Position numbers and translations under genes: made by a program. From NCBI GenBank assembly GCA_965235115.1, contig OZ249446.1, positions 28,086,001-28,150,000 of the forward strand: a DNA stretch of 64,000 bases, read 5' to 3'. Source of the stretch: Laetmonice hystrix (Eukaryota). The first letter of the stretch is position 1. Each line of letters begins with the position of its first letter. Positions 16,562 through 50,339 of this stretch are shown here, one piece after another. The notes under the pieces are model-generated. The model was not told the DNA's origin. It ran no database searches and worked only from the letters and a program-made list of their open reading frames with translations.

Positions 16562-16579
16562 CAACGGGTTGCGGGACCA
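16562..16579 (-). promoter_or_regulatory. Gypsy-A primer binding site (tRNA not assigned)
   Basis: TGGTCCCGCAACCCG begins 1 nt inside the 5' LTR end. TGGTCC fits a tRNA with A73 and C1:G72 (Tyr-type), but the rest could not be matched from memory. Confidence 0.7.
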
Positions 16580-16580
16580 A

Positions 16581-26004: not shown

Positions 26005-26783
26005 TGTAACGTCCCTGGCCTCGTTGCCAGGTTAGCTACTGGGCTCCCAAGTCCCTTAATATGTGACACTGGATGAAAAGAACACAAACACACATATTGG
26101 AGTTGAGAAAGAAATGGTTTTATTCAAATACGGGTAGTGATAAACCTATCCTGCCTCTGGTCTAAAATAGGGTTAGTACTTCTCGTTGTATTCCTGTCGT
26201 AAAAATGAATATAATGAATATACAAGACTCAAGTCTTGTCTGAGATCCGAATATTCCCGGCGGAGAACTAACCTAAAAGATCTAACATCTTGTTTATAAT
26301 GAATTGGATCTGAATGTTCACATTCAGCTTTTTGGCCTAAATAATCAGAAAAACCCTTACTCTGGCCTTAGGCTTATAGCCATATCTGACGAACAGACCT
26401 TACACGTATTTCCTATACGTTTCAAGCTCTGACGACAGCTTGGCATAAATTGCTGGTACAAGCATTCTAATACATGCCTATTGGCACGTCTACCGTACAT
26501 ACCTGGACTTAGAGGTAGCCATTTCAGTGGTTTCGGCTTGTAAGTTACTCAGGGCAGTATTCCGTCCCTTCTTAGCTGGAGGTTTAACGACACTCCCAGA
26601 CTTATTGCAGAGACCGGGCTTTTATATCAGAGGGATATGCATATGCATGCCAGGGGAGCCAATGAGAATACGCTGGCTGACGGCGCCACTGGGCCCTGGT
26701 CAGCTGGGGGTGCATCGCCGGGGTAGCGACGTGCTTAGTGCACATGCACTTGACACAGACGTTGGGCCAGCCCAATCGTCACA
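26005..26783 (-). repeat. Gypsy-B 3' LTR (779 bp)
   Basis: Differs from the 5' LTR by about 4 substitutions, a 3-nt indel and replacement of 42 nt by CATC at about 26713. Confidence 0.96.
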
Positions 26784-27077
26784 CACCTCCCTTTCCAAAA
26801 AGACATATGTTACACATATAACAATAGTTACTATCCTACACTAAGTTCTAGACCTACGGGTACAATAAAGGAGCAGCATGGGTTAGGGACGACCCACTGT
26901 CTTTGACGATAATCTGAAATCAAGACAAGAGTCAACAATACAAGTCAAACAAAATGATCCAGGTTCAAATTTTAATAGGCAATATGCACAGGGTGCTCCA
27001 GACAACTCTAATTAGTCCTTTAAATGTCCCGATAAATGTTCCTGTTTGGTTGAGACACAGACAGTTAAGCCTACAAG

Positions 27078-28184
27078 TTACAACATCTCGGATGCCTGTG
27101 CCTGGCTGCGACCCTGCAGGGAGAGGGACCGGACGTCGGACGTCGTAAGTGGAAACACTTGTGTTTGTGTCAGATGGGGGTACAGCACATATCCCCTGCT
27201 AATCCTGACGTTCCTGAGGTCGGCAACTATGGATGGTCGACCCGCCCTGGACTGCTCCAGTTCGTTGTTCCTTTCTTGTAGCTCCCGGCTTTTCTGTTCC
27301 AGGCGTGTTATCTTCTCCTGGAGCTCTTGGACTTCCAAAGTCTTTAGCTTTCTCTTAAGATCGTCCCTCATCGTCCTCATCTCATGTTCCTTCCTCTCCA
27401 GGCCCCCTATGACGGTGGTGAGGACCCGTTGATCCTGGGTGTCAGGTTGATGTCCCTGGATGGCCTCCTCCAACTCCCTCTCTCCGGGTCTGGTTGATGG
27501 GACAAGGGGTCCGCCTTTCCACACGGTGGATCTTTGTTCCGGGGGCAGTGCTCCTGCTGGCAGCTTTGTCGGAAACTGGCACGTGGTGTGTCCGGAAAAG
27601 GGGTCACGATGTGGGGTGACTGAGCCTGTTGCCTGGTACCTCACGTTTTCCCTCAAAGAACAAAACCAAACCTTGTCCTTCAGTTCCAGGGCCCTCTTGG
27701 CTTGTGCTTCATGGGCCGTGGTGATGTGCCGTTTCAAGGAACCTCGTTCTGGTGACAGGAAGCCACAGTCCGGCACTGGACACCAGTGAAGGATTATCTC
27801 TGGTTGGTGAAGATTACGCCAATGCTTGGCGAAGGCCGCATACTGCCGACTGTCTTGGCAGAGGTTCATCTGCCGGCATACTTCCACTGGACAAGGGAAG
27901 ATAACTGGCTTCCCTGTCACGGTGCTCGGAAGTCGTTGACACTTTTGAGCAGTGCCTTTCGGGTTGGGAATGGGTACGGTAGCCTGGCACACTTTAGCAG
28001 TGCCTTTAGCTTTAAGAGGGGTGGCCTGACACGTTAAATTCGTGCCTTTATTGCCAGGGGAATGTGGTAGGGGACTCAAGGGTGGAAAAAGGGCGCCATC
28101 ATCTTCATTTAACTCATCATAATCTAATTCGACCTCCAGGGCGTCCAGTTCGGTCAGATCATGGCTAAAAAGGGAAGAGGACAT
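27078..28184 (-). CDS. Gypsy-B ORF3 (368 aa): two C2H2-like zinc fingers plus a coiled coil; not an envelope protein
   Basis: ATG lies 16 nt after the pol stop. Motifs CPVEVC...KHWRNLH and CPVPDC...KRHITTAH; heptad region LERKEHEMRTMRDDLKRKLKTLEVQELQEKITRLEQKSRELQERNNELEQ. No signal peptide or TM segment seen. Confidence 0.85.
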   Translation of the reverse strand: MSSSLFSHDLTELDALEVELDYDELNEDDGALFPPLSPLPHSPGNKGTNLTCQATPLKAKGTAKVCQATVPIPNPKGTAQKCQRLPSTVTGKPVIFPCPVEVCRQMNLCQDSRQYAAFAKHWRNLHQPEIILHWCPVPDCGFLSPERGSLKRHITTAHEAQAKRALELKDKVWFCSLRENVRYQATGSVTPHRDPFSGHTTCQFPTKLPAGALPPEQRSTVWKGGPLVPSTRPGERELEEAIQGHQPDTQDQRVLTTVIGGLERKEHEMRTMRDDLKRKLKTLEVQELQEKITRLEQKSRELQERNNELEQSRAGRPSIVADLRNVRISRGYVLYPHLTQTQVFPLTTSDVRSLSLQGRSQAQASEML

Positions 28185-28200
28185 CTTTGTTTTATTTCAG

Positions 28201-31200
28201 TTAAAGGTCCATCCGAACTGGTGGTTTCCTGACCCTGGTGCCTCGTCTTAACGTCGTGCCGTCTGTAGTGACAGTTTTTGGGTCGGAAGGAGAGGTATTA
28301 TTCCTGTTTGATTCAGGATTTAGGCTCTCCTCTGACTCACTGTCATCGGTTATTAGGAATGATGCATCATGCCTGTCAGGTGCTGACTCATTAACAGTCT
28401 CCTTAACTTCTAACCAACTTTGTGGTGCATTGATGCCTTGGTATGGTTTCAAGGCATCCACATGCACAGTGATTACTTTACTGTGCTCTGCTTGTTGGAT
28501 TTGGTAGGTGACATTAGTTAATTTCTTAACAACTAGGAATGGTCCACGCCAGCCCTTTCCCAACTTTTCCTTAGCCTGAGGGGGGTAGTAGTGCCATACC
28601 CAGTCACCTTCTTTGAATGTACCCAAACCCGAGTCTCTATCATACAGACGTTTCTGCCTTACTGCACTTTTCTGTAGAAAAATGCGTACATATGTGAACG
28701 CTTCTTCTGTGGCCCGTCGAACCCACTGCACATACTCGATAGGGCACCTAGTCTGCTTGCTATTAGGAGGCTGCCCTACCATGACATCTAATGGTACATT
28801 AGTCTCCCTACCCAACATAAGAAGGTTTGGAGTGCAGTTTGTGCTCTCGTGTACAGAGGCTCGGTATGCCATCATGACATACATAAGATGATTGTCCCAA
28901 TCATCCCGGTTCTCATTCACATACATGGCAAGCATCTGTTGGAGGGTTCTATTAAATCGTTCTACAAGGCCATCGGACTGGGGTCTGTATGAAGTCGTTC
29001 GAGTTTTGTGCACTTGCATGAGGTCACAGATCTGTTTGAATAGATCAGATTCAAAATTTCTACCCTGATCTGAATGTAATTGTCGGGGACATCCTAAACG
29101 ACAATAGCCACTTTTTCTAATGGAATGCCAACTGCTTCTTGGGTGAGTTTAGCACGCCACCTTTTTGGACGGTTTTCTACGGGCACAGATGTCACATTTC
29201 TGACACCAACTGATGATGTCTCTCTTGTAACTTGGCCAATAAAACCTTTGCCTAATGTTCTTAGTCAAGCGTGTGACCCCTAAGTGACCTGCAGTACGGC
29301 TAGAGTGGAGGGAATGCAGAACCTTCTCTCGTAGTTCTGTAGGAGCTACCAGCTGCATCACTGGAATGCTACTCCCATCGGGATACCATTCTCTGTATAA
29401 CAGTCCATCCCGTACATGGAGTACCTTCCATTGTGCCCAATAAGATTTAGTAACTGCATCATATGGGGCAACCTCAGCCCATCTTGGCTTTTCGTGAGAT
29501 TGCTCCTTCCACTTTAGTACCACCTGAATACAAGGATCGGCCTGTTGCCATTGTTTCAGCTGCGCCTGATCATACTGCAACAACCATTGGCCTTCACCAT
29601 TCTTTACATCAGATTGACCAGCCTTACTGGGTACCTGCAAGTTCTGTTTTCTAGATGAATCTTTAGTTCGTTTGCCGGCATGAACAACGTTCATCTTGTG
29701 TACAGAACAATCTGGACAGTCAACACGTCTACAACTGCGAGTTGTGGGCAATCGTGAAAGGGCATCAGCATTGGCATGTTTGGAGCCTTTACGGTGAGTA
29801 ATTTGGTAATCATATGTCTCAAGTATGGTTAACCATCTAGATGTTACCTCATCATGATTAGTAAAGTTCTTTAGCCAAACCAGAGAGGCATGGTCAGTTC
29901 GGATTATAAACTTCTGACCATATAAGTAATGCCTAAAATGCTTTACAAACTCAACTACAGCATATAGTTCTTTCTTTGTAGTGCAATAGTTCCTGCGTGA
30001 CTTATCAAGGGATTTGCTGGCATATGCAATGGCACGTTCAGTACCATCCTGTACCTGATGTAACACGGCGCCGATGCCATCATTGCTGGCGTCTGTATCT
30101 AAAATAAACGTGCCCTCTTGAGTTGGATAGGCTAACACCTCAGCTGAGATTAGGCTCTGTTTTAATTTATCGAATGCTCCTTCACACTCCTCTGTCCATT
30201 CAAATTTTACCCCTTTTCTCATCAGGTTACGTAGAGGAGCAGAAATAGTGGAAAAGTTATCTATGAACTGTCTATAATAGGAGGCGAAACCATGGAAACT
30301 ACGGACTTCTCGAGCATTACAAGGTCGAGGCCAAGTGGAGACAGCTTTGATCTTCTCAGGATCACAACTTACACCTTCTGCAGAAACGACATGACCCAGA
30401 AATTGCAACTGTCGTTTGAACAATTTGCATTTCTTGGCCTTTAGCTTAAGACCAGCATCTCTAAACCTATCAAATACCACAGAAAGGTTAGCTAGGGTAT
30501 CTTCAAATGTCTTTCCAAAACAGATTACGTCGTCCAAATATACTAGGCATAATTGCCATTGCAAGCCACGTAGTACAAGTTCTATTAGACGCTCAAATGT
30601 AGCAGGTGCGTTTGTTAAACCGAAGGGCATGACATTAAATTGAAACAAACCCTTTCTAGTCGCAAAGGCAGTTTTTTCTTTATCCGCCTTATCCATAGGG
30701 ACCTGCCAATAGCCACTGGCACAATCGATTGTACAAAACCATTCAGCGCCTGCTAATGTATCTATGGTTTCGTCGATGCGTGGTAGTGGATAAGCATCCT
30801 TTTGAGTAACCTGGTTAAGTTTCCTATAGTCGACACAAAACCTAATTGTCCCGTCCTTCTTGGTTACTAGGACGATGGGTGATGCCCAGGGACTAGTGCT
30901 AGGTTTGATAACTCCCTGCTTCAGCATCTTATCAACTTCCTCATCAGCAACACTACGGCGTTGAATCGGCAAACGCCGAACCGGTTGCTTGATAGGCCTG
31001 CTATCTCCTGTATTAATTTTATGAGTAACTAGATTAGTACCTCCTAGTTCACCACCAGGTTCAGCAAAAATGTCTGCATAAGACGAAACCAACTTATGTA
31101 CAAGTGCAGTCTGAGCTGCAGTCAAATCCCGACTACTGTCATCTACCAATGCCTGCAGATGTTCAGGTAATACTCTACCACTGGCATCTGTAGCCAATTG

Positions 31201-31989
31201 TTCCTTATCTGGAGTGCACTCCAATTCTGTGAAATGTGATATGGGTTGTAGTAATGCCACAGCTACACCTTTCTTAAGAGTTACTGGTTCATTTCGGAGA
31301 TTGATAACGGTTAAAGGTACGGTTTTATTGGCTGCATTCACTAAAGCCTTACCAAAGATCACGCCTGACCTATGAGTTATGGATGCCAATCCTTCTACAG
31401 CTCCTAACCCTCGAGGTATTGGCTTCCTAGAATGTTTAGCCTGAGCAATGCCTTCTACCATCATCTGACTGTCAGCTGGTATATGTATGGTGTTAGCTAA
31501 ATGTACCCTGCAACAACCTTCATTGTCCTCCCTTTGCAATTGAATCTTTTGAGATCCTATCTCTAAGATACCTTTAGAGAAATCAAGCTTTGGTTGAAGC
31601 ATGTCAATGAAATCTAATCCAAGCAAACCTTCCAAACTTCCTAGGTTTGAAACTAATACAGGATGTTTATATGACACATTGCCAAGTCGGATTATAGCCA
31701 TGAATTCACCTAACACATCCATTGAACTTCCATCAGCTAAGGTAAAGTTCATATTACATGGATGTAGCTGTACATCAGTCATTTTGATTTTCTTGTAAAT
31801 CGACTGATTAATTATCGTGCAAGACGCGCCAGTATCAACAAGAAATTTAACTTTGTGCCCGTTCACTGGAACACTCATATACCATCCATTTTGACTGTGT
31901 ATCTGAAGCATTTGTTTCTGAATATTTGGCCCTTTAATCTGTCGACTGGCTGAGCTGACGGCCTCCAGGTCAGCCAATTTTAGTTTTCC
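28201..31989 (-). pseudogene. pol: Gypsy-B pol (PR-RT-RH-IN), disrupted in integrase
   Basis: FLVDTGAS, YLDD, LDTDASND, HHCC. A 1-nt frameshift occurs at about 29162. EKVAI is then joined directly to RLGCPRQLHSDQG at about 29101, deleting the first catalytic Asp region. pol is in the -1 frame relative to gag at GGAAAAC-TAA (31983-31989). Confidence 0.93.
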
Positions 31990-33257
31990 GAATTAGAGGC
32001 TTCAGCTTGCTCTTTATACTTTGTACAGTTTCTTTGAACATGACCTAGTTCCTTACAGTACCAGCATCTAAGATTGCGATGCCTATTGCCTAAACCAGAC
32101 CTCTGCTGTTGACTCATTGCCAGTACTGGAGGTTTCTTAGCATATGTGCTACATTCATTGACCACTTCAAAATCTACTGCTAGAGTGATGGCATCATTCA
32201 TTGTCTTTGGATGGTGGAAATGTACATGTTGCCTCATTGAGTGACTCAATCCGGTTTTAAATTGATCGAGCAACCACTCTTCTTGGGCCTCTGTGCTCTG
32301 ATTGGGAAATGCCCTTTTAACCAATCTTCTCAATTCATAACCATAGTCAATTAGTTTCTCATTTGGTTTTCTGAACCGTTTTCTGAATTCGGATTTATAC
32401 ACATCTTCCCTGCCAGATGGGTTAAACCTATGTGTTAGTGCTTCCACCATAGCAGCATAACTTAATTGTAAGGCTCTGGGCAAGTTGGTTATAGTGCTTC
32501 TAGCCTCTTTTGTCATGCTCATACCCAGTTGAATACCCTTTTCACTTTCAGACCACTCGTTCCATTGGCTTACTTTCTCAAAATAGTCTAAGTATTCCTG
32601 CAAATCACTTTCACCAGTATACATCTCAGGGTCTTTCTGACGCCTCTTGATGTGTTGCTGAGATTGTGATTGCACAGGAAAATAAGACTCAACCCTTTGT
32701 GGTTGATTCTGAATAGGTAGTAAATACGCCATTGGACTTGTGGGTTGAGTGTGGATAGGTGTTGAATACACCATTGGACCTGCTGATTGGGTGTGGATGG
32801 GTGTTGAATACACCCTTTGGCCTGTTGGTGTTTGCACACTTGTAGGATGTGCACTGTACCATCCGGCAATGGGAGGTGGTGGAGTGATCCAGGGACTGGT
32901 GTAATTAGTGGCTTGACCTGTATTAGGCATTTGACTGGGAGTTCCAGTACTACACACTGGACCTTTGTTACTGTATGTGGGCGTGGTTACTGTGTAAGTC
33001 TCATGAAGAGTGCCAGCTGAGTAACTGTACGCAGGTATGTGATTCTCGTGAATTGATTGGTAAGTGGGTACGGGTGCACTTGTTATTGGTAAAACTGTTT
33101 GTGCTCTCAACAGTGTTGAGTCTTCTAGGTCAGATTTTCTAACCACCCGTTCTTCCTTGTGCACAGTTAAAGGATCCCTGAGTGTATCGCTGTCAGTACT
33201 GTTTTATACGTGAAACCATTGTGAAACCGTTTCGTGTAATGATCTCCACCAAGACAT
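31980..33257 (-). pseudogene. gag: Gypsy-B gag with a premature stop near the N terminus
   Basis: KDPEMYTGESDLQEYLDYFE capsid-like motif; CWYCKELGHVQRNC knuckle. An in-frame ATG at 33257 (MSWWRSL...) is separated from the 394-codon ORF by one TAA at 33204-33206. Confidence 0.88.
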
Positions 33258-33381
33258 CTTGACAGTATTTTCAATTATTAAATACAGTAAATATCAATTT
33301 AATTCAAACTGATTACTCAGCTAAATATATGAACTCAGTTAAATGCAGGATAATAACAAAATAGCCTGTAAACCAATTATT

Positions 33382-33578
33382 GATCACAGTACCAATTTGT
33401 GTAATTCTCCACATTTGGGCATAGTACTAAATTGTGTTTCAGTTGTGTCTCTCCATCCAGAATTAGTCACGGTACCAAACTGTGTAATTCTTCGGAATTA
33501 CTTCAAAATTGGTCGCGGCACCAAATTGTGTAATTCTTCAGAATTACTTTAAAATGGTCACGGCACCAAATTGTGTAA
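33382..33578 (-). promoter_or_regulatory. Tandem tRNA-His-type PBS cassettes (45-nt period)
   Basis: TGGTGCCGTGACC (33556-33568), TGGTGCCGCGACC (33511-33523), TGGTACCGTGACT (33465-33477) and degenerate TGGTACTGTGATC (33382-33394). Each is preceded on the - strand by TTACA-CA(A/G)(T/A)T. Confidence 0.88.
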
Positions 33579-34387
33579 CGTCCCTGGCCTCGTTGCCAGG
33601 TTAGCTACTGGGCTCCCAAGTCCCTTAATATGTGACACTGGATGAAAAGAACACAAACACACATATTGGAGTTGAGAAAGAAATGGTTTTATTCAAATAC
33701 GGGTAGTGATAAACCTATCCTGCCTCTGGTCTAAAATAGGGTTAGTACTTCTCGTTGTATTCCTGTCGTAAAAATGAATATAATGAATATACAAGACTCA
33801 AGTCTTGTCTGAGATCCGAATATTCCCGGCGGAGAACTAACCTAAAAGATCTAACATCTTGTTTATAATGAATTGGATCTGAATGTTCACATTCAGCTTT
33901 TTGGCCTAAATAATCAGAAAAACCCTTACTCTGGCCTTAGGCTTATAGCCATATCTGACGAGCAGACCTTACACGTATTTCCTATACGTTTCAAGCTCTG
34001 ACGACAGCTTGGCATAAATTGCTGGTACAAGCATTCTTATACATGCCTATTGGCACGTCTACCGCACATACCTGGACTTAGAGGTAGCCATTTCAGTGGT
34101 TTCGGCTTGTAAGTTACTCAGGGCAGTATTCCGTCCCTTCTTAGCTGGAGGTTTAACGACACTCCCAGACTTATTGCAGAGACCGGGCTTTTATATCAGA
34201 GGGATATGCATATGCATGCCAGGGGAGCCAATGAGAATACGCTGGCTGACGGCACTGGGCCCTGGTCAGCTGGGGGTGGGATACTTAGTCATGGGTGGCT
34301 GCACACACAGGCGATGTGTGGCCGGGGTAGCGACGTGCTTAGTGCACATGCACTTGACACAGACTTTGGGCCAGCCCAATCGTCACA
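33574..34387 (-). repeat. Gypsy-B 5' LTR (814 bp)
   Basis: Direct repeat of 26005-26783; adjacent to the PBS. Confidence 0.96.
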
Positions 34388-37050: not shown

Positions 37051-39905
37051 TTTGGGCTGTTACTCACTTATGCAATATGATAGAAACCTACACCCGGGCT
37101 CATTTTGCCCCTGAAATATCATACTTTTAGAAAAAATAGGGTGTACAATGTTGCCAGGGGGTGCAACAAAACCAAAATTTTAGGACGCTGGCTCCCAGAC
37201 TATTATCACTGGCTACACACTGATCATCGTAACGCGCGTTACGCTGATCCAAGATGGAGGAAGGCAGGTCTCGCTTCAACTAAAACCAGGCGTATTTCAA
37301 GCAGTTCCGTGTCTCTGATTCATCTATAAGACGTCCTAGTTGTTTATTGCAATGGCGGCATCATGTTTGGTGAACCTCGGCGCCTGAGATTGCCTAGAAA
37401 TCTCAAAAAACGCTCCGAAAATTTTCGCTGTGATACCCGTAACGCGGACAAGGCATGTTGACAAATGATACCCGTAACGCGAATTATTGATACCCGTAAC
37501 GCGACTCATTGCTGGTTAGCCTGCCATTCACTCGTAAGCTGTACTGCCTTTATTCTTCATCTTTCAAGTAGGAAAACCATTCTCACCAATTTTCGTTTGA
37601 AGGAAATTTAATTGTTTGTGTTACTTGAAATCTTGTGCAGGTTGTGGCAGAGTTTTGACAGTTCAACTTCATGTAGAACGGAGTACGTTAGCGGTAGCCA
37701 CGCTCGCAAACGCGAATACTTCCAGCCTGTGGCGAGTTCCACTGCCAAAATAAACCACCAAATTCGCCACGCCTGCAAATTCCAGCTGTCTCCAGTTTAT
37801 AGCCCAGGTCCCCCCCCCCATGCACACCTGATCCACCACTGATTGTGGTTGGAGCACGTGTGTCGGTGTGACATGTGGGTGGTCAGAGACCAGGGTGACC
37901 GACCCACCCGACCCGGTCACTTCGCCAGGCCTAGCCTCTAACATAGGCCGTGTGTATACACGGCCTATCCTCTAGCGAACGGGCTACGAGACCAAACGTT
38001 CAACCCGCAAAATGAATGTGCGCCCGCACCTCTTCCATCACCTCAAATAAAAGATTGCCTTTACCTTCAGCTACTGAGCCCAATGAACTTACTTGGTGTT
38101 CCTCTAAGCAACAGATTCGGCCAATTTTCCAAACCAAGCGACCACTTTCCATAGTCTTACAACCGGCGCCATTTCTGTAAACCCACATCCGGGGTCAAGC
38201 TCACGAAGGGAGCAGTCATTTCAGACGTTGGCTATTAGTTTGGCGCCATAATGGAGGAATTGTTGTTTGGTCTAGAATAATGAGTGCTCCCCTGCTGGTC
38301 GCCAGTGTGTACGTTTTGAACATGCGCAGTAGAACAAACAGTATGGCGGCTAACGGCAGTGAACCAGCGCGATTCGGAATTTGGAAAGTCTGATTTATTA
38401 AAACTTTGGGCAAAAATCCTCGGAAAAGTGTGCAGCAGAGGAACAGAAGATGGGCTGCGTTAGAATTGACACCTCAACTGGCAGTAGTTACGATGGATTT
38501 TGCACAGCGAGTGATTGACATAGGAGGTAGGGTTTTTCGCGTTAACGCTGTCTGTCCCTACACTGGGACGATACTCCGTCTACGCCAGGCCATGCCAGCC
38601 GCCCGTAGGTATGCATCTGTTCCCCCTAGTCTACTACGGACTACCCCAGGTCAGGCCGGCCCTCAGTACTGGTCCGTCTCCCCTGGGTCCAGTCCATCTG
38701 GGGTGAGTTTATGACAGATGCCAGTCAGCCTGTAGGAGTAATATAGGCCTAAATGATATCCCGATTACCTGGCAGGCTGAGTGTGCCAGGAGAGGACAGG
38801 CGACACATAGCATGGCTGAGGTCACATGGCATGAAGGTGGGGAGGCAGCTCGGCCGCTCAGTACGGGGGTCGGGGGTGTGAGGGGTGGGGGCTGTCAGGG
38901 GTGGGGGGTCGCTGTGATGAGAGGGTATATAGCCTAGGTACCCGTCAATTTGGGCCAGGCCTCCTCTGAGACATCTTCATCGTATGTAGGTGTAGATCTA
39001 CTGTACTGGATCCCAATATTCTTGCTGTTTAAGAGGGCCATGCACTTGTGTAGAGTTATCCTCGAGATATAGGACAGCTTATTCCCCCCCAAAAAGTTCA
39101 CTACACACAGCTGGCAAATGAAAGTACATGTACTTTCATTTATACAGAGAAATTAAGACTGTATAATACATGTATAATGAACTCTGGTTACCTAAATAAA
39201 AAACATTAAAACAACTGTGGCTAAAACTTTTTCCTTGTGGCTAGTTCTTTTCCTCAGTTGTTAGCCACTGTGGCTAATACCCAAAATTCACTAGCGTACT
39301 CCCTACTCGGAGGAGTCAGGGTGCTCTACCCCGGGGTACTGGGGAAGGACAAAGCATCTCGATCTCTCATGGTGCCTGCCAGGCATGTCTTAGATTCGTG
39401 TCCCCGCCCTGGGGTCCACACACACTCTGTATGGTAACACCTATAGTATAGTATAGTATCACACACGCTGTTAATCCGGGCCCTATTATATACGTGTACC
39501 TCATGGTTTTACCTTCATACTGAAGTAGATAATGCTCATTACAAAGTTGAGATTCATTATCAGATCACGAGCCGATGTTGAAAGTCGTCTACTCGTCTAC
39601 GTAAAAACCTTTAGGCTCAGTGAAAAGTTTAGGTGCCGCGTTACGCCTATCCTGTCACCAAATTAAACTTGCGTTATGGGGATCAGCGCTGCGCGTTACG
39701 GGTATCATCGCTAAATCTTCTGCGTCCATTTTCTCTTAATCTACGCCCCTCTAGGACCCCAAACTGAGACAAACGGCAGGCACACATTGTTATCATGATA
39801 TTCAGATGTTGTTTTATGTTATTGATGCACCGTAGCCCTTGTAACTTGAACAAAAACACGCGAAGCGAGCATCGGGATCCTCCATCTTGGATCAGCGTAA
39901 CGCGC

Positions 39906-41024
39906 TGTAAAGTCTACCAACTTTTTGAATTTCCCACCCTCTCAGATATTTGAAGTTTTGCCACCTCTCACTAGAGGGCAGTGGGCGGTCATAGCCGTCC
40001 TTGCAGGAAGATGGCGCTACACGTTTATTGAGTATCTTTTAATAATTATAACCTAATTATAATTATGTAGGTAATACATTTATATAGGTAGTTCTGGCAC
40101 CGTGTGTTTTAATAGGTATGTTTATGAAAGTAATACATGTATAATTATGTTGGTGTAGGTACAAGTGGTCAGGGTGAAGCTGAAGTTAGATTTCTCAAAT
40201 ATACGAGTAGTATTTTGTAAAGCTTCACATTTATTGTTATTATATTTTACAAGAACAGTGCTGCATGTACAATTATGTTTGTGTAGGTACAAGTGGTCAG
40301 GGTGAAGCGTTCCTGGCAGAAAGTGATATATTTTAAACTATAGTAATAATATAGAAAGCCTGACATTGTTGTAAGGTACAACTAGAGTATGAACCTTGGT
40401 ACACTATCTATATGTTATCAGGAAGGGTCAGTCACTGGACAGTCCAGCTGGCCAGCTTCACGCGACAATAGGTTATCTGGAAGGAACGGTCAGAGTCCAC
40501 CTAAGGGTTTGAGACCATGTTCACATTTTACTCTTTATATTTACCATAGAGGGCGCTGTTGCTATTATAGTTAACCCTTGGATATTACCAGGTTTAAGCC
40601 ACTAGATGGCACTGTTGTTCACAATATGAACACACCTTAACTTCCAGTGATCATGAGTGATTTGTATCTCAGTATCAAGGTCCAGTATTGATAGGCAGGG
40701 ATACTGGACCCAAGTTGTATAAATAGGGAGAAGAAATAAAGCTTATTAGACTCGACTTCACCACCACCTCGGTCTCATCGTTCTCCTTTGACGCTACAGC
40801 ACCGTTAGGATGCGGTTGGGCTCTCCACCTTCAGGCTCATGGTGAAGCCAGGTAACTAGCCTACTTAGTATACTACATTCATTCGGCCCTTTAGGCACTA
40901 AGTAGGCACGAGTATGAAATGCTCATCTAAATTCCAAATTTATTAATTGTGTTTGTTAGTTGTCACGAAACACAACTAGCTGGTGACCACAAGTTAAACA
41001 AAGAATCGGGTCACAATCTTTACA
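39906..41024 (+). repeat. Gypsy-C 5' LTR (1119 bp)
   Basis: TGTAAAG...CTTTACA ends; TATAAATA at 40718-40725; AATAAA at 40735-40740; an internal direct repeat of about 43 bp at about 40138 and 40266. Confidence 0.97.
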
Positions 41025-41025
41025 T

Positions 41026-41043
41026 TGGTGACCACGATGGGAC
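41026..41043 (+). promoter_or_regulatory. Gypsy-C primer binding site, tRNA-Trp-like
   Basis: TGGTGACCACGATGGGAC begins 1 nt after the LTR. The first 8 nt match the tRNA-Trp complement TGGTGACC(CCGACGTGA); there are mismatches after that. Confidence 0.7.
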
Positions 41044-41156
41044 TCTATTGATGTAAGTGTGGACCGACAGGACGCAGCCCACTGAGTAGAAGGAAGTCAG
41101 CTACGTGGTTCCCCATTCAAAAGTAGTAGGACGAAGTACAAAGTAGAAGTACAAAG

Positions 41157-41214
41157 ATGGATGAACAACAACAGCAACAACTGCAACAGCAACAACTGCA
41201 ACAGCAGCAACTGC

Positions 41215-41251
<37 letters not shown>

Positions 41252-42266
41252 GGAAGAGGCGCCACTCACAGCGGCAGAGATGCAACGGCTACAACAGCAC
41301 CGCTTCAATCTAGAAGCCACTAGACAAGTTCGACATCGACTAGAACAGCACGCAAAGAGGATTGGAGTGGCAGATGGTGCGAACCGGGAAGGCCTAAGAG
41401 AATGGATCCGTGGAATTGACAACGCGAGTGCATGGGTAAATGCTAGCGACAGCATGCTCCTAGAAATGGTAGGCTACCTCGTCACGGGAAGCTTGGCAAC
41501 AATGGTAAGAAATTATATTGTTGAATCCTTGCCCGATGAACGCTCCTGGGAACATATAAAAACGGCAATCGTAAAAGCTTTCCTGGATGAAGATGAGAAA
41601 GAATACCTTCGCGCTAAGGTAGAGAAAATAGTGCAAAATCCGTATGAGGATTCCAGGGAATACGGTAGACGTTATAAGGAAGCAGTGACAAGGGCTTACG
41701 ATGCTGAAGAGTTGGCGCTACCGCTAGTAAAGGATCGGCTTATTAAACAGTACATCCAAGGATTACAAAATAGGACAGCACGCACCCAAGTGCACTTCCA
41801 ACGACCATCCACCTTAGATGGCGCCATAGATTCTGCCAACTCAGCCGCACGAGCAGTGGGTCTAGCAGAGGTAGCAGAACGCTATGAAGAACCGATGGAT
41901 ATAGGGACCTTCCCCAACATGAAGCCAGCAGCAAGAGAAAAGAAAGAAAATGAAGAGTACACCCAACTCTTGAAGACAGTACAGGGAGAAATGAAATCAA
42001 TTCGAAAACTACTGGAGAAGCGTGGTATCAGTGAAACGGGAAGAGCTTCACAAGAGACAGGATATTCTGAAGTGAGAAGAGCACCAAGACAGACAGGATA
42101 TTCTAAACCAGTGCGCACACCCGTTCAAAGAACCGAGGACAGGAGCAATAAGAAGTGTTATCACTGCCAGGAGCTGGGCCACTTCGCTCGTGATTGCCGG
42201 AAGAGACTGGAGACTGCCGTGCAAGCAGCAGTGGAGTCACAGATAAAACGTCTTGATTTAAACTAG
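41157..42266 (+). CDS. gag: Gypsy-C Gag (369 aa) with N-terminal polyQ
   Basis: LREWIRGID...YLVTGSL capsid-like region, EEPMDIG motif, CYHCQELGHFARDC knuckle. Confidence 0.95.
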
Positions 42267-45200
42267 GACGGGCACCGGATCGCCGCATATGTATTTTCAT
42301 TGTGCTAGCAGGAGTCAGAATGAACATCTTACTAGATACCGGTGCCAGTAAATCATTGATCAAGGCGGACAAATGGATTGCTATCTGTAGAAATAGTCAT
42401 CGAGTACCACTGACAACCCCGGGAGTGAAGCTGCGAGGATTAGGAGGTGCAGACATCCCCACGAGAGGGAAAACTGAAATACCTATCTACGGTAGGAACG
42501 TAGAATTTCAAGTCACTGATACATTGCAGCATGATGCACTATTTGGTACAGATATTTTGGAAGCTCTGGAAGCAGAAATAAGCTATAAGAAGCGTAAGGT
42601 GTTCTTTCAAGGAAAGGCCCACAGATACAAGACAGCAGGAGATGGAGACTCAGATGTAGCGGCAGTATATTCCGAAATGGATAAATGGATACAGGCGTAT
42701 CCCACCGTCTTTGCCACCGAAGGAACAGCTTTGGGATGCACTGATGCCGTGAAGATGTCCATAGACACAGGTGAGAACCCCCCAGTCAAACAACGACCTT
42801 ACCGGCTCCCATTGGCAAAACGCCGAGTAGTAGATGAGGAAATCAAAAAAATGTTAGAAGAGGATATAATCGAACCCAGCAGCTCCCCCTGGGCATCACC
42901 ACTGCTACTGGTACCGAAAAAGGATGGCACCATGCGATTCTGTGTCGACTATCGCAGGTTAAACTCGGTCACCAAAAAGGACGCCCACCCCCTCCCACTC
43001 ATTCAAGACATCTTCGATACCTTGGCAGGCAGTAAGATCTTCAGCACATTAGATTTAAAAAGTGGTTACTGGCAAATCAAGATGGCGGAGGACAGTGTAG
43101 AAAAAACAGCCTTTGCTTGCCATCGGGGATTATTTCAGTTTAAACGGATGCCCTTCGGATTAACCAATGCACCGTCAGTATTTCAACGTTTAATGAACAA
43201 AGTCCTCGCACCATACCTCGGCCAATTTGTGTTAGTTTTTATCGACGATGTCGTTATATTCAGCCGCACGGAGGAAGAACATGAGGAACATCTTAAATTA
43301 GTACTCGAGGCACTGAAATCATATAGACTAAAGGTAAAACCTTCCAAGTGCACCATTGGAGCCCAGGAGCTTCGCCTTTTAGGCTACATCATTACGGCAA
43401 ATGGAATCAGTGCTGACCCAGACAAGACAAATGCAATACGCAAAATGGCGCCACCACAAACTGTAAAAGGGGTTCGGTCATTCTTAGGAATGACCGGATA
43501 CTATCGACAATGCATACCTAATTATGCCAAGGTATCCCACCCTCTAGTCCAACTCACGAAAAAGAATGTGCGTTTTGAGTGGGCTAAGGAACACCAGGAT
43601 GCCTGGGTGCACCTACGCCAACTCCTCACGTCGGATCACGTAATGGCTTACCCACAGCTGAATAGACCATACAAACTCTATACCGACGCTTGTGAGTACG
43701 CCATTGGTGCTATATTGGTGCAAGAAGACGACATGGGCGTCGAACGTCCCATTCAATACATCTCCAAGCAACTCTCGGGAGCTCAACTCCGTTGGGCAAC
43801 AATAGAAAAAGAAGCCTATGCTGTTGTTTATGCTTTGAAGAAACTCCGCCCATATCTCTATTCCTCTGAGTTCACCATCTTCACGGACCATAAGCCATTA
43901 AAATCATTATTTCTCTCAGAAATCAATAACACCAAGATACAACGATGGGCTGTGTTGCTAGCAGAGTATGGAGCACCGATACAATACAGGAAGGGCCCAA
44001 ACAACATCCGGGCAGATATGTTGTCGAGGATAAAACCGCAAGTGGATCAGGATGGAGAACCGGAACAGGCGCTCGACCTTTGTGCGATTGCAGGTGAAGA
44101 GGTCCTGTGGGAGTTTGACCAATTGGAAAAGGAGGAAATCCGGAAGGAACAAGAAACTATGCCAGAGTACACCCAGGGTACAGAAGATGACAGCAACTAT
44201 GTTCTGCATGACGGACTGCTCTATACTCTAAAACCCCCACCAGGAAAAGCGGAATACCCTCGCCTTGTTCTACCCCCAAGTACACGATTCCGGGTAATAC
44301 GAAGAGCACATGCAGAAGTAGGACACCAAGGCATGAGGAAAACCTTGGACAGGCTCCAAGAAGCCTATTGGTGGTCAGGACAACGGAATGACACCTATCA
44401 CCTCCTATCACGTTGCGCAAAATGTAGTGTCAACAGAAACACTACAGAAAAGCCACCCCCTACGGAGATGCCGGTAGCTCAATATCCATGCCAAATAGTG
44501 GGAATGGACATGTGTGGTCCATTTCCTATTTCCCCAGAAGGGAATAGATACATGTTGACACTAATTGATCACGCGACTGGATGGGTAGAGGTGAAACCAC
44601 TACCACAAAAAACTGCTGCAAATATCTTGAAATATCTGGAAACTGAGTACATCCCTCGTTACGGGCCACCGGAAGTACTAATCACAGACCGTGGCCTTGA
44701 GTTTCGTAATGAACTAGTCGTTGGCTACCTTAAACGACTGGGAGTGGATGTACGGCACACAACACCCTACCACCCTCAGACGAATGGAAAGATAGAACGC
44801 TTTCATCGGACCCTTAAGGACTTACTGCGTAAACTTGTGAATGCGCGAAGTACGGAGTGGGAACAATGCCTAGGACCAGCACTATGGGCTCACAGGGTTA
44901 GCACATCCGTGGTAACTGGCTACTCACCGTACTTTCTCGCATACGGACGACAACCCCCAGTACCATACCAGAAACTGCTGAGACGAACAGAAGGGACGGA
45001 AACAGATATCCTAGCAGACCGACTAGACGAATTAAGTAAAGCTTTCAAGGAGGCTGCGAGGAGGACAGAAGAAAGCCGAAAATACAACAGAGAACGTCTA
45101 CAAAAACAGGCACGGGCCGATGTTTTATCAATTGGAGACCACGTGGTAGTTTTAGCACAGGAAGGGTCACCGTTGGACCCGAAGTGGGACCATGGATACG

Positions 45201-45628
45201 TGATAACTCGGATACAAGGTCCTGTTATCTCAGTGGTTGGACGGCAAAACAAAAGGCGCACTATCAATCGTGATAAGGTCAGATTGGCTGACCCTGACGC
45301 GGACTGGGATGGCCTACGACCTCGTCTGACTCGAACACAGCGAAAGAACGTTGCACTGGGACGAGTCAATATCCCTATCAGTGTTCCGGGTCAAACCGGA
45401 CCACCAGTTGATGATAATCCCCCGCACTATCATAGACGGGCCATTAAAAGGAGGCTGTTCAGCGAAGACGACGCCATTCCTGCGAAGTCTCCCTTCCACA
45501 TGAGGTTACGTCCCCAGAAACGGCCCAGCTCGGAAGAACAGTTAGAAGCAAAAAGAAGATGCATCGCCACGGTTGCAGCATTCTGTGGTGCACCCTCGTC
45601 TACCTCGTCTCCAGGGGGAGACCGGTGA
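42257..45628 (+). CDS. pol: Gypsy-C Pol (PR-RT-RH-IN), reached by a predicted -1 frameshift
   Basis: Slippery heptamer T TTA AAC (42257-42263) directly precedes the gag TAG, and the -1 frame is open into LLDTGAS. Motifs FIDD, YTDACEY, HAEVGH...CAKC, DMCGP / TDRGLEF / IERFHRT. Confidence 0.96.
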   Translation, partial: FKLGRAPDRRICIFIVLAGVRMNILLDTGASKSLIKADKWIAICRNSHRVPLTTPGVKLRGLGGADIPTRGKTEIPIYGRNVEFQVTDTLQHDALFGTDILEALEAEISYKKRKVFFQGKAHRYKTAGDGDSDVAAVYSEMDKWIQAYPTVFATEGTALGCTDAVKMSIDTGENPPVKQRPYRLPLAKRRVVDEEIKKMLEEDIIEPSSSPWASPLLLVPKKDGTMRFCVDYRRLNSVTKKDAHPLPLIQDIFDTLAGSKIFSTLDLKSGYWQIKMAEDSVEKTAFACHRGLFQFKRMPFGLTNAPSVFQRLMNKVLAPYLGQFVLVFIDDVVIFSRTEEEHEEHLKLVLEALKSYRLKVKPSKCTIGAQELRLLGYIITANGISADPDKTNAIRKMAPPQTVKGVRSFLGMTGYYRQCIPNYAKVSHPLVQLTKKNVRFEWAKEHQDAWVHLRQLLTSDHVMAYPQLNRPYKLYTDACEYAIGAILVQEDDMGVERPIQYISKQLSGAQLRWATIEKEAYAVVYALKKLRPYLYSSEFTIFTDHKPLKSLFLSEINNTKIQRWAVLLAEYGAPIQYRKGPNNIRADMLSRIKPQVDQDGEPEQALDLCAIAGEEVLWEFDQLEKEEIRKEQETMPEYTQGTEDDSNYVLHDGLLYTLKPPPGKAEYPRLVLPPSTRFRVIRRAHAEVGHQGMRKTLDRLQEAYWWSGQRNDTYHLLSRCAKCSVNRNTTEKPPPTEMPVAQYPCQIVGMDMCGPFPISPEGNRYMLTLIDHATGWVEVKPLPQKTAANILKYLETEYIPRYGPPEVLITDRGLEFRNELVVGYLKRLGVDVRHTTPYHPQTNGKIERFHRTLKDLLRKLVNARSTEWEQCLGPALWAHRVSTSVVTGYSPYFLAYGRQPPVPYQKLLRRTEGTETDILADRLDELSKAFKEAARRTEESRKYNRERLQKQARADVLSIGDHVVVLAQEGSPLDPKWDHGYVITRIQGPVISVVGRQNKRRTINRDKVRLADPDADWDGLRPRLTRTQRKNVALGRVNIPISVPGQTGPPVDDNPPHYHRRAIKRRLFSEDDAIPAKSPFHMRLRPQKRPSSEEQLEAKRRCIATVAAFCGAPSSTSSPGGDR

Positions 45629-47394
45629 CTGCCGATTTGTTTACGGAAGATGGCGTTCTCGTGGAGGAGGGCGGAGAAACAAGAATAGTGTCAGCCTTAT
45701 GGACAGCTGTTATCGTGGTACATCCTCCATGCCGCCCAAATATCTCGGAATGGTCGACAGACGTAAAACGTGCCATCTCAAAAGCCGGAACCCAAGTGAC
45801 TGATAACGACAAATCTAACTGGTATTTCCGTTTAAATTCATTACATATAAAGCGGGATCTCGATGTCGGAACAAGCGTCCGGCTCGGTGGTGTGACCCCC
45901 CCGACAAGTCGCCCCACTCGAGTCAGACGTGGCTTGATCAACTTTGTCGGGAAGTTGAGTAAGGCATTGTTCGGCACCGCTACCGTTGATGATATTAACA
46001 TTTTAAAAACAGCTCTTGATAAAACTCGCAAGAAAATGACCATCCTTCATCATGAAAGTGCACATATGTTGAGTGTTATCAACCAAACTAGAAGATATAT
46101 TCAAGAAAATAGACAAGATTTACGAGAGTTACAATCCGAAACAAGTAAACTTTATACATTGGCCAGTACAAATGCCCGAAAGGTTCAGGCTTTGCAGCTA
46201 TATATGGGAAAATTAACTTTACAGAGGCAGATTGACCAGACCATTGAACAAATGGAATTTGCAATCAGAGATTTTCATACACAAAAACGTATTTTTGACG
46301 ATCAGGTTTTTCAATTGCAACAAGGTTGGTTAACGGAAAATGTGTTACCTCCACGGTACTTAATGGAGATTATTAATGAACTTAACCAGCAGGGACATCA
46401 AACGCTCAGTTTGAACTGGTATTATCAATTTATCCATACAAATTTACTATGGCACACTAACGGAGAGTTTGCGTTCCGCGTGGTAATCCCAGGAGTGACA
46501 AATGGGAAGTATTTACGGTTTTTCTTAAAATATTTTAAGGTCCCCCATGATGACAATCATGTGCGGAGTTTTACAGGTCAAAATAGTATTGTGGTCAGCA
46601 CGACCTCTTCTACGTCGTTTGCTCCGGACTCATGTGCTGGACATGATCCGTTGGTATGTCAACCAGAGAAGGAATATTTTACTTCTTCATGTGAGGATGC
46701 TCTTGTAAACGGGTTAATATCACCCAATTGTACAATATTAATCTCGAAACGGTCCAATCATACCGTGGATATACTCCGAAATGCTGATAATCCAAACTCG
46801 GTTGTCATTGTGACTTATACACCTACTAAGGCAGTGTTGCGATGTAGCGGCCGGCTGGCACGACATTTGGACATTATGGGTCCCCAACGGACTGAGGTGC
46901 CAGGCGGATGTGTGTTAGAAGGACCGAATTGGAGAACTCGTGGTTTTCAACTTGGACAAAGCACCATGCATGTACGTCCACCAGTGGTTCCTCTATTCCC
47001 TCGTATTAATCTTACCTGGCCAACGTTTGTGACGCCAGAAGTGCGCGATAAACTGTCGTTTCGCAAACGGGTGGAAGTGCCACTCCTATCCATGAAAGAC
47101 TGGACGGCAGAAGAAACGGACTCATCCGAATGGATTCTTCCTAATCCTCATATTTGGCTTCCAACTGGTGGAATTGTAGTTGTAGTGATTATTTTACTTA
47201 TTATTTTTATCATTTATTGGTTTACTTGTAAAACCAAGAAGTCTGTATCAGGAAACGTCGTAAATGTACCGAATATAATTCCGATGTCTGCACCGGATAC
47301 TATTAATGTTGTACAGACGCCTATTAAATTAAATGACATGGATATCAAGTATCCTTATCGTACGGCCTCCATGGCTCTCCAATCATTGTCTTAA
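45559..47394 (+). CDS. env: Envelope glycoprotein (611 aa), errantivirus / baculovirus-F-like class I fusion protein
   Basis: Signal-peptide-like N terminus; furin site RVRR followed by the fusion peptide GLINFVGKLSKALFGTAT; heptad repeats; Cys-containing ectodomain; sequons NIS, NQT, NCT, NHT and NLT; TM IVVVVIILLIIFIIYWF plus a cytoplasmic tail. Confidence 0.93.
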   Translation: MHRHGCSILWCTLVYLVSRGRPVTADLFTEDGVLVEEGGETRIVSALWTAVIVVHPPCRPNISEWSTDVKRAISKAGTQVTDNDKSNWYFRLNSLHIKRDLDVGTSVRLGGVTPPTSRPTRVRRGLINFVGKLSKALFGTATVDDINILKTALDKTRKKMTILHHESAHMLSVINQTRRYIQENRQDLRELQSETSKLYTLASTNARKVQALQLYMGKLTLQRQIDQTIEQMEFAIRDFHTQKRIFDDQVFQLQQGWLTENVLPPRYLMEIINELNQQGHQTLSLNWYYQFIHTNLLWHTNGEFAFRVVIPGVTNGKYLRFFLKYFKVPHDDNHVRSFTGQNSIVVSTTSSTSFAPDSCAGHDPLVCQPEKEYFTSSCEDALVNGLISPNCTILISKRSNHTVDILRNADNPNSVVIVTYTPTKAVLRCSGRLARHLDIMGPQRTEVPGGCVLEGPNWRTRGFQLGQSTMHVRPPVVPLFPRINLTWPTFVTPEVRDKLSFRKRVEVPLLSMKDWTAEETDSSEWILPNPHIWLPTGGIVVVVIILLIIFIIYWFTCKTKKSVSGNVVNVPNIIPMSAPDTINVVQTPIKLNDMDIKYPYRTASMALQSLS

Positions 47395-47433
47395 GTTTGA
47401 TAGTATGTATCAAACTAATGAGTGGGGAAGGTA

Positions 47434-48945
47434 TGTAAAGTCTACCAACTTTTTGAATTTCCCACCCTCTCAGATATTTGAAGTTTTGCCACCTCTCACT
47501 AGAGGGCAGTGGGCGGTCATAGCCGTCCTTGCAGGAAGATGGCGCTACACGTTTATTGAGTATCTTTTAATAATTATAACCTAATTATAATTATGTAGGT
47601 AATACATTTATATAGGTAGTTCTGGCACCGTGTGTTTTAATAGGTATGTTTATGAAAGTAATACATGTATAATTATGTTGGTGTAGGTACAAGTGGTCAG
47701 GGTGAAGCTGAAGTTAGATTTCTCAAATATACGAGTAGTATTTTGTAAAGCTTCACATTTATTGTTATTATATTTTACAAGAACAGTGCTGCATGTACAA
47801 TTATGTTTGTGTAGGTACAAGTGGTCAGGGTGAAGCGTTCCTGGCAGAAAGTGATATATTTTAAACTATAGTAATAATATAGAAAGCCTGACATTGTTGT
47901 AAGGTACAACTAGAGTATGAACCTTGGTACACTATCTATATGTTATCAGGAAGGGTCAGTCACTGGACAGTCCAGCTGGCCAGCTTCACGCGACAATAGG
48001 TTATCTGGAAGGAACGGTCAGAGTCCACCTAAGGGTTTGAGACCATGTTCACATTTTACTCTTTATATTTACCATAGAGAGCGCTGTTGCTATTATAGTT
48101 AACCCTTGGATATTACCAGGTTTAAGCCACTAGATGGCACTGTTGTTCACAATATGAACACACCTTAACTTCCAGTGATCATGAGTGATTTGTATCTCAG
48201 TATCAAGGTCCAGTATTGATAGGCAGGGATACTGGACCCAAGTTGTATAAATAGGGAGAAGAAATAAAGCTTATTAGACTCGACTTCACCACCACCTCGG
48301 TCTCATCGTTCTCCTTTGACGCTACAGCACCGTTAGGCCAAAAAAAAAAAAGTTTCGTTTCTTGTCCTTTCATATAAAAAAAATGGTGCGGTGACGCGGC
48401 TTTTTTTTTTTTTTCATCTTTCTTTTTTTTTTTTGGATGCAACTAGACAACGGCCGATTCTTCGAATGCAATTGCTGTTGGGTACATAAATCTTGAAGAA
48501 AAGACTAATGCAATGATGTTCAATGTTTTAGAATGTGTAAAACTCGCATAAAAAGCAATAAGACTAACAGAAAGGCGCCAACGCCAAAGAACCGTTGCAA
48601 CGTTCTGTCCCAGCGCTACACTGCCCACCATATGAAGCAGTCGGATTTGAAAAAAAAGACTTGACGCGGGGGTTTTTAGGTGACGCGCGCGGGGACAAGA
48701 AACGAATCTATTTTTTTTTTTGGCCTTAGGATGCGGTTGGGCTCTTCACCTTCAGGCTCATGGTGAAGCCAGGTAACTAGCCTACTTAGTATACTACATT
48801 CATTCGGCCCTTTAGGCACTAAGTAGGCACGAGTACGAAATGCTCATCTAAATTCCAAATTTATTAATTGTGTTTGTTAGTTGTCACGAAACACAACTAG
48901 CTGGTGACCACAAGTTAAACAAAGAATCGGGTCACAATCTTTACA
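47434..48945 (+). repeat. Gypsy-C 3' LTR (1512 bp including a 390-bp MITE and its TSD)
   Basis: 1119 + 390 + 3 = 1512; about 3 substitutions relative to the 5' LTR by eye. Confidence 0.96.
48336..48725. mobile_element. PIF/Harbinger-type (Tourist-like) MITE, 390 bp
   Basis: TIRs ggccaaaaaa...gtttcgtttcttgtcc / ggacaagaaacgaatc...ttttttggcc; TTA TSD (48333-48335, 48726-48728). The empty site accgttaggatgcgg is present in the 5' LTR at 40801. Confidence 0.95.
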
Positions 48946-50339
48946 GCGCGTTACGATGATCAGTGTGTAGCCAGTGATTATAGGAAAAATGCACGAAGAG
49001 GTTGTGGCCCACTGCAAATATGAACCAGGAAGACAATGGAATGTTCATGAGGAGGGCAATGACTTAATATTTGGTAAAATGTAACATGGAAGAGGGGGCA
49101 GTCGTTAAATACGGTCCCATAGAAACATCGACGCGGGGGGGGGGGGGCTATGGCTGTCGATGACCCAAAAGAAATATGGAACAGGTACGCGCGGCGGGGA
49201 GGGGGGGGGGGGGCTATCCATGACCCAAAATAAATATAGACCAGGAGGACAATGGCTCAGTTGCATTCACCAGAATTTTCATGAAGAGGGCAATAGATAA
49301 ATATAGTTCAAAATGTAATATCGACTAGGGGGCAGTTGTTAAATATGACCCTATCCAAACATTGATTCGAGATACTATGGCTAAATATTGCTTTCTATGA
49401 ATTCCGCTAAGTGGGACAGTCATTAAATGGGGGTTACAGGAAACATAGACGAGGAGGACAATGGAATGTTCACGACGAGGGCAATCACTAAATATGGTAA
49501 CATGGAGGAGGGGGGGGGGCTGTCGTTGAATATGGGCCCACAGGAACATCTACGCGGGGGGAGGGACTATGGCTATCTTTCACCCAAAATAAATATAGAC
49601 CAGGAGGACAATTGCTAAGTGGCATTCATTCGAATGTTCATGAGGAGGGCAGTTTATAAATATCGTTGTAGAAGTAATATGTACGAGGTGGCAGTCGTTA
49701 AATAAGGCCCGACAGAAAGATGGATCAGCGGGACGATGGCTAAATATTACTCTGTAGGAATGTTACTGAGAGGAGCAGTGACTCAATGGGGGTTATAGGA
49801 AAAATACACGAAGGGGTTGTGGCCCACTGCAAATATGAACCAGGAAGACAATGGAACGTTCATGAGTAGGGCAATGACTTAATAATATGTACTAGGGGGC
49901 AGTCGGTAAATAAGGCCAGACAGAAACATGGACACGATGGCTAAATATTACTCTGTAGGAATGTTGATCTATGACCCAAGATAAATATGGAACAGGTACG
50001 CGCGGCGGGAGTATGCAAAACGGCGTATGAAAATATAAATAAAAGCTGAGAAATGGCGAAAACCCTTTATAACAACGTGAAAACCTAAGTAAAACCTTGA
50101 AAAAGCAAAACATTTTTTTTTTTTTTTTATTGAGCATTTTTATCCAGGATATCCAACTCGGCTACTTCACCGTCACAAATGTCGGATCCTGCTTACAGTT
50201 AAACGGTACAAATGAAGTAAAACGTATCATACAGGTGCACACGTCCCCTAACTCCAGATTACATTAACTTTTTTATTACATTAATCAATATAGATTATCT
50301 AAAAGTAATTGTCACTAATCATTGTTCATGTCCCTAATG

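Follow-up and report, generated by a model that had tools for sequence, protein, structure and literature searches.

An env gene starting inside the end of pol in an errantivirus-like element of Laetmonice hystrix, with a predicted F-type fusogen as its product

We analysed a 64,000-nucleotide stretch of the Laetmonice hystrix genome (GenBank assembly GCA_965235115.1, contig OZ249446.1, positions 28,086,001 to 28,150,000 of the forward strand), referred to here as the window, which carries a Ty3/gypsy element that has long terminal repeats (LTRs) and gag, pol and env genes. We found that env has its own ATG inside the end of pol and that the overlap, as judged from the sequences of this one genome, is dual-coded, closing the integrase in one frame and opening the Env signal peptide in the other. 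The product is predicted to be a divergent F-type class I fusogen under selection. A spliced RNA with a short non-coding leader is the expression route towards which we lean slightly. The features on which the argument depends are listed below by window position:

42257..45628, forward strand: pol, 1123 open codons for protease, reverse transcriptase (RT), RNase H, a 'mini' bridge domain and integrase
45527..45586, forward strand: integrase-tail motif EQxxAKRxC-hydrophobic-...-FC in the pol frame, the second half of which is dual-coded, with the Env signal peptide in the other frame
45559..47394, forward strand: env, 611 aa, with its own ATG (A at -3) and a 70-nt pol overlap
45559..45633, forward strand: predicted signal peptide (aa 1-25)
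45919..45984, forward strand: furin motif RVRR at aa 121-124, followed by the predicted fusion peptide at aa 125-142
45985..46320, forward strand: heptad region (aa 143-254)
47164..47391, forward strand: predicted transmembrane (TM) helix at aa 536-557, then a cytoplasmic tail of 54 aa at aa 558-611

An earlier model-made reading of the letters (the sequence-only reading) had placed the env ATG 70 nt inside pol in another frame, and this was borne out: the ATG lies at 45559, the pol stop at 45628 and env is in the -1 frame. We examined the junction in one copy each of 18 env-bearing lineages or sub-lineages of this genome, picked by hand from 60 10-kb loci and the window; the remaining loci were near-duplicates or were without a junction or env. 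Env identities among the first 11 lineages were 22-43%, with four pairs closer. An own ATG followed by a signal-like stretch was present in all 18 lineages. Env overlaps pol in 15 of them, each time in the -1 frame, with overlaps of 70, 70, 49, 88, 49, 43, 49, 46, 34, 40, 22, 13, 22 and 40 nt and one TAATG stop-start in a multi-copy lineage (L062-L066; C21, C5, C8, C29); two of the 15 are from copies that have an earlier stop in pol, and there the pol-frame stop that comes next was taken as the end. In two lineages the pol stop is separated from the env ATG by a gap (105 nt in one, 119 nt in the other), and one further lineage was unmeasurable. These gap forms are confined to one derived branch of the RT tree (19 rows), and the RT and env trees (the latter with 16 rows; short or broken rows were left out) are broadly congruent, so the overlap is probably ancestral here. 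In our own tree the 17 env-bearing lineages grouped apart from two env-less neighbours (support 100/100). Two metagenome scans and one viral scan for the junctions of relatives from other hosts gave no confirmed relative. Several relatives start with M-Y or M-H, as the overlap predicts.

The ATG at 45559 is supported as the real start by several sequence features. In the pol frame its A occupies a synonymous third position, and 9/9 lineages tested have kept it (codon usage: P ~3e-5, for lineages which are related and so not fully independent). A purine is found at -3 in all 18 lineages (P = 0.03 for the 10 lineages tested), and ATGs are rarer in the last 100 nt upstream than in shuffled sequences (12 vs 19.4 across 17 lineages, P = 0.04).

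Dual coding is visible at positions which are silent for Env. At env codons 2, 8 and 9 the third base, silent for Env, is T in 7/7, T in 7/7 and G in 6/7 lineages respectively, while in the control codons 31-45 the third base is shared in 3-5 of 7 lineages; codons 11 and 12 also reach 6/7. Between the window element and its sister lineage the overlap has 9 substitutions, of which 6 are silent in pol and 2 in env. Where the ATG lies further downstream (L189, L191), a similar basic-plus-helix tail motif is still found in pol. The integrase-tail motif is thus kept within the overlap at positions silent for Env in the sequences of this genome, and the tail, with its basic cluster and short helix, likely has a role in nuclear import or chromatin binding. 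The overlap would persist because the last integrase residues and the start of Env are both under selection.

A similar arrangement has been described in murine leukemia virus (MLV), in which the integrase C-terminal tail that binds BET (bromodomain and extra-terminal) proteins and the Env signal peptide are read in different frames from one overlapping stretch, whose codon bias favours the integrase frame (PMC6974304). MLV differs in belonging to the Retroviridae, in its unrelated Env and in its tail motif, W(X7)PLK(I/L)R (PMC6974304), which is absent from the integrase tails read out at these junctions; another motif is present here.

We compared Env to known fusion proteins by family, profile and predicted structure. 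The Pfam family Baculo_F matches it above the cut-off (E = 1.9e-6), and 765 proteins of a representative protein library match it at E <= 0.001. The profile and the conservation counts were built on an alignment of 118 of these 765. A search of solved structures with the single Env sequence gave no match below E = 0.9, and the profile of 118 relatives matched a 'fusion protein' (PDB 9w4d/9w4c, E = 1.4e-12). The AlphaFold model of the Env monomer has a mean predicted local distance difference test score (pLDDT) of 79.7, and Foldseek matched it to baculovirus F (E = 8e-22) and to the F protein of respiratory syncytial virus (RSV; E = 7e-13); the F protein of human metapneumovirus (HMPV) was also among the fold-search matches. 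Aligned to the RSV F head (4ccf), the model gave Z 11.8 and a root-mean-square deviation (rmsd) of 4.3 across 243 residues; over the whole chain the rmsd values are large, owing to a different placement of the stalk. One point weighs against this fold assignment: residues 107-180, which include the fusion peptide and the first heptads, are poorly modelled (pLDDT mostly < 50).

The sequence-only reading had described signal-like residues after the ATG, RVRR|GLINFVG, heptads, a TM segment and a tail, and all of these are present. A furin motif occurs at the RVRR|GLINFVG site (aa 121-131) in 110/118 aligned proteins, the FG of the fusion peptide is conserved among the aligned relatives and the six F1 cysteines are retained in 115-118 of 118. 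The long helix of the model (aa 177-254) holds 16 hydrophobic residues in its a/d register, compared with 3-12 in the other registers. The TM core lies at aa 539-557 and the TM helix of the model spans aa 536-556. At the N-terminus, the signal peptide is predicted from a hydrophobic stretch (aa 7-17), the first helix of the model and a 'signal + DLF' start shared by relatives. The five sequons noted earlier are also there (61, 175, 390, 400 and 484), but their number is no more than chance (5 vs 4.0 expected in shuffles, P = 0.36) and only N175 (107/118 rows) and N484 (65/115) are conserved; we therefore rejected the five sequons as evidence. The ratio of nonsynonymous to synonymous substitution rates (dN/dS) of env against a sister lineage at 84% identity is 0.16, indicating purifying selection. 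Taken with the Pfam match and the profile and fold searches, this leads us to predict that Env is a selected F-type class I fusogen. The earlier proposal of a divergent F-like class I fusogen is therefore upheld as a prediction, on which the Pfam match, the profile hit among solved structures and the three fold comparisons agree.

The likeness to baculovirus F (Ld130) and to pneumo- and paramyxovirus F lies in the predicted fold, the order of furin site and fusion peptide, and the heptads. The difference lies in identities of only 10-16% and in the F2 part: no conserved F2 cysteine was found in the window Env family, and 92/109 relatives are without any cysteine in F2. Paramyxovirus F has a disulfide between F2 and F1, and without a conserved F2 cysteine a bond of this type is likely absent here. 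By description, the window Env also resembles the env of the TelKA elements of bdelloid rotifers, a paramyxovirus-F-like third open reading frame (ORF) of ~600 aa in a non-insect LTR element (PMC5408684).

We also considered how env might be expressed. The sequence-only reading had suggested a possibly different route from that of Drosophila gypsy. Part of this stands, as the own conserved ATG is unlike the arrangement in the Drosophila insect endogenous retroviruses (iERVs); the overlapping ATG is, however, no evidence against splicing, since MLV has the same overlap. The env of MLV is expressed from a spliced RNA. For scoring splice sites we used matrices derived from host homeobox introns (40 donors and 25 acceptors). 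A candidate donor, GAT|GTAAGT, lies after the primer-binding site (PBS) and scores 9.6, which is reached by 0/8 pol windows. The LTR-end donor window beats all 8 background windows in 4/10 lineages and is matched by at most one of the 8 in 7/10. In the lineage with the 119-nt non-coding gap (L206/L192), a pyrimidine-rich CAG acceptor 99 nt before the ATG scores 9.3-9.6, a value reached by 0/10 background windows, and two others of the later seven lineages have moderate acceptors (7.2 and 6.8). In L206/L192 a branch-point-like motif also covers the pol stop, and the gap has an upstream ORF of 5 codons which ends just before the env ATG.

A number of observations weigh against a spliced leader. 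The best acceptor of the window element within 300 nt scores 3.2, compared with a median of 9.2 in host introns, and 7/10 background windows score as high; in none of the first 11 lineages does an acceptor stand above background. The pyrimidine-rich CAG found 41 nt upstream of the ATG has a score of 1.2, and near-identical copies have lost it; the 84% sister lineage does not have the donor that follows the PBS. ATGs are commoner 100-200 nt upstream (27 vs 16), three lie within 250 nt upstream of the env start (two of them in weak context) and one upstream ATG opens the pol-tail frame across the env start. Among deletion derivatives (20 partial or rearranged loci, 22 LTR-family loci and 10 junctions) none has splice-like GT...AG ends, the joins being microhomology or filler. 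It should also be considered that the matrices are based on only 40 donors and 25 acceptors. Separately, three contig runs of one sample, compared with 40700-47430, gave six joints, none of them GT..AG; these have no bearing on expression. Retroviral splice acceptors are often weak, and it is for this reason that we still put a spliced RNA with a short non-coding leader a little above an even chance.

A short, unspliced env RNA could instead be made from a promoter internal to pol, at its 3' end, and would encode the same fusogen from the same ATG. This is a possible route which we consider a minority reading. The absence of a strong acceptor within 150 nt upstream of the ATG in 15/18 lineages speaks for it, and the limitation of ATG depletion to the last 100 nt and the existence of both overlap and gap forms would fit; on the other side stand the textbook acceptor found where non-coding space is free (L206/L192) and the fact that all Drosophila iERV env RNAs tested are spliced (PMC12992720).

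Env could also be translated from RNA of genome length, with ribosomes reinitiating once they have terminated at the end of pol, or entering internally. The TAATG stop-start of one lineage (L062-L066) is suggestive of this, as this pentamer is found in viruses that reinitiate, and the ATG lies within 88 nt of the pol stop in 15/18 lineages. However, the distance between ATG and stop spans an 88-nt overlap to a 119-nt gap, which is not what coupling to the pol stop would give, and the 70- and 88-nt overlaps and the 105- and 119-nt gaps are long for reinitiation. The yield would also be low, given that pol is itself reached only by frameshift, and there is no stable RNA structure around the env start (z = 0.23) and no Rfam match. 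We regard this route as improbable.

In Drosophila iERVs (gypsy, ZAM, idefix and springer) the main env exon takes its start codon from an upstream exon (PMC12992720). As in them, the third ORF of the window element codes for an F-type Env that has a furin site, a fusion peptide, the cysteines and a TM segment (PMC12992720); the difference, by sequence test, is that its ATG and whole signal peptide are contiguous. Were the start codon or a leader peptide to come from upstream here as well, the ATG in pol would be incidental. The exon before the candidate donor does end in AT, as in the springer subclade (PMC12992720), and an AG|G at env codon 19 scores 4.8 in the window element and 7.1 in its sister. 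However, a 98% copy (L053) has AC in place of this AT, joining at codon 19 loses the signal peptide, no comparable codon-19 site scores in the other 16 lineages, and the env ATG and -3 purine are conserved. These points make a Drosophila-type route very unlikely, and on the same points a splice-made AT|G start was rejected.

The least probable of the routes is a second -1 frameshift fusing pol and env into one polyprotein, which we would hardly expect. It would account for env lying in the -1 frame in all 15 overlapping lineages, but a slippery heptamer near the junction was found in 0/18 lineages, in 8 lineages the open stretch of the env frame ahead of the ATG is just 3-8 codons long, and the ATG is conserved; a pol-to-env frameshift was rejected for these reasons.

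Returning to the spliced leader, the RNA for Env would be subgenomic and carry a short non-coding leader, with splicing as in gammaretroviruses its probable source, and this RNA route is the least certain step. The signal peptide would then bring Env into the secretory path, furin would cut after RVRR, and the Env trimer would sit on Gag-budded particles and drive membrane fusion through its heptads. Particles would pass between host cells, with germline entry by analogy to Drosophila. A further combination appears doubtful to us: that env is made without a Drosophila-type splice, by an internal promoter or reinitiation, and that ancient errantiviruses reached an MLV-like design independently, with the integrase-tail helix tethering integration to a host chromatin factor.

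We compared the element to the 'ancient errantiviruses' (Chary and Hayashi, eLife 2026), a set of 1,512 Ty3/gypsy elements with F-type env from annelids, molluscs and most animal phyla (PMC13524379). It shares with them an LTR-flanked, uninterrupted gag-pol-env in which protease is followed by RT, then RNase H and then integrase (PR-RT-RH-IN), several near-identical copies, a lophotrochozoan host, an F-type Env that has a predicted signal peptide, a furin site, a fusion peptide and a TM segment, an RNase H followed by a 'mini' domain, and a PBS of the Arg(UCG) type, as in several polychaete elements (PMC13524379). Insect elements mostly have a pseudo-RNase H bridge instead (PMC13524379). In a model (mean pLDDT 74.4) we found helices at 178-201 and strands at 209-212, 215-218 and 230-232, between RNase H and the zinc-binding domain, which fits a 'mini' domain (helix and three small strands) and no pseudo-RNase H, a call read from the secondary structure of the model only. 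By domain order, LTRs and this modelled domain, the element would count as an 'ancient errantivirus' on operational criteria. The fusogen itself is one more beside a published set of about 1,500 (PMC13524379). The earlier suggestion that it would be relevant to the spread of F-type env genes among invertebrate retroelements is of small weight, since published work already reports Ty3/gypsy elements with F-type env from most animal phyla (PMC13524379).

The main text of PMC13524379 mentions neither splicing nor overlap, although its figure supplements may bear on this, and the ATG position, dual coding and integrase-tail motif described here are not treated in that main text. A literature search which covered few subscription papers found none that deals with the start codon of env, or with an overlap of pol and env, in errantiviruses outside the insects. 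The conserved overlap of integrase tail and signal peptide would thus be a modest addition to published knowledge, from one genome only. The junction has specialist value as a natural series of 1-88-nt overlaps, a stop-start, 105-119-nt gaps and candidate splice sites. If the dual coding is real, it would give a mechanical reason for pol and env staying together in evolution, which has been reported with no cause given (PMC13524379), and would draw attention to the integrase-tail motif and its putative host partner. If the MLV-like design is true, an integrase tail written over the Env signal peptide would lock pol and env together.

The remaining features of the element are as follows:

39902-39905 and again 48946-48949: target duplication GCGC, 4 bp, flanking the element
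39906..41024, forward strand: 5' LTR, 1119 nt, TG...CA
41026..41043, forward strand: PBS, complementary to host tRNA-Arg(TCG)
41053..41058, forward strand: candidate splice donor GAT|GTAAGT (predicted), 29 nt past the LTR
41157..42266, forward strand: gag, with poly-Q N-terminus, Retrotrans_gag and a CCHC knuckle
42257..42263, forward strand: slippery heptamer TTTAAAC, immediately before the gag stop
47420..47431, forward strand: polypurine tract
47434..48945, forward strand: 3' LTR, split by a 390-bp insert resembling a miniature inverted-repeat transposable element (MITE)

The two LTRs have 3 mismatches in 1119 nt, indicating a young Ty3/gypsy element, and the gag and pol domains are in Ty3/gypsy order (Pfam). 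A 16-nt PBS pattern matches an array of tRNA-Arg(tcg) genes in the host genome. Pol, in the -1 frame, is presumably reached from gag by frameshift at TTTAAAC. The poly-glutamine tract at the start of gag (41160-41250) differs in length from copy to copy. The MITE-like insert in the 3' LTR (48336-48725, 390 bp) has inverted ends of GGCC plus an A-run and a TTA duplication, and we take it to be PIF/Harbinger-like. The insertion site is the centre of a 16-bp palindromic target (39896-39905 and 48946-48955), and the 4-bp target duplications of env-bearing families are often alternating purine-pyrimidine (ACGT, ATAT, ACAT, ATGT).

Three further env copies at 99% were found in the genome, and at least 77 env matches altogether. 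The genome also has a Hox cluster that includes Lox2/Lox4-type genes and a Lox5-type gene carrying the KLTGP peptide, which puts the host in the lophotrochozoans. Compared with L054, the window element has a silent divergence of 0.54 in env and ~2.9 in pol, a difference that hints at recombination between the two sister lineages. Several loci were of unusual structure. Five (L071-L074 and L076) are non-autonomous units of ~2.5 kb with the same LTR and leader, two small env scraps and otherwise unrelated interiors. Tandem ATG-less env pieces without pol occur at C10:28.05-28.07 Mb and C12:27.67-27.71 Mb (L044, L045), with periods of ~9.3 kb and 13 kb. At C30:9.8-10.4 Mb (L203) there are dozens of tandem integrase-tail fragments keeping EQ..AKRRC..FC, with no env match in the locus. 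Two head-to-tail copies at C7:22.11-22.13 Mb (L051, L052) have a common middle LTR and the same ~680-bp integrase insert in both. The window also contains two further LTR elements without F-type env, at 7630-17058 and at ~25999-34380 (minus strand), the second of which has a third ORF of 372 codons (27078-28196) with no clear Pfam family.

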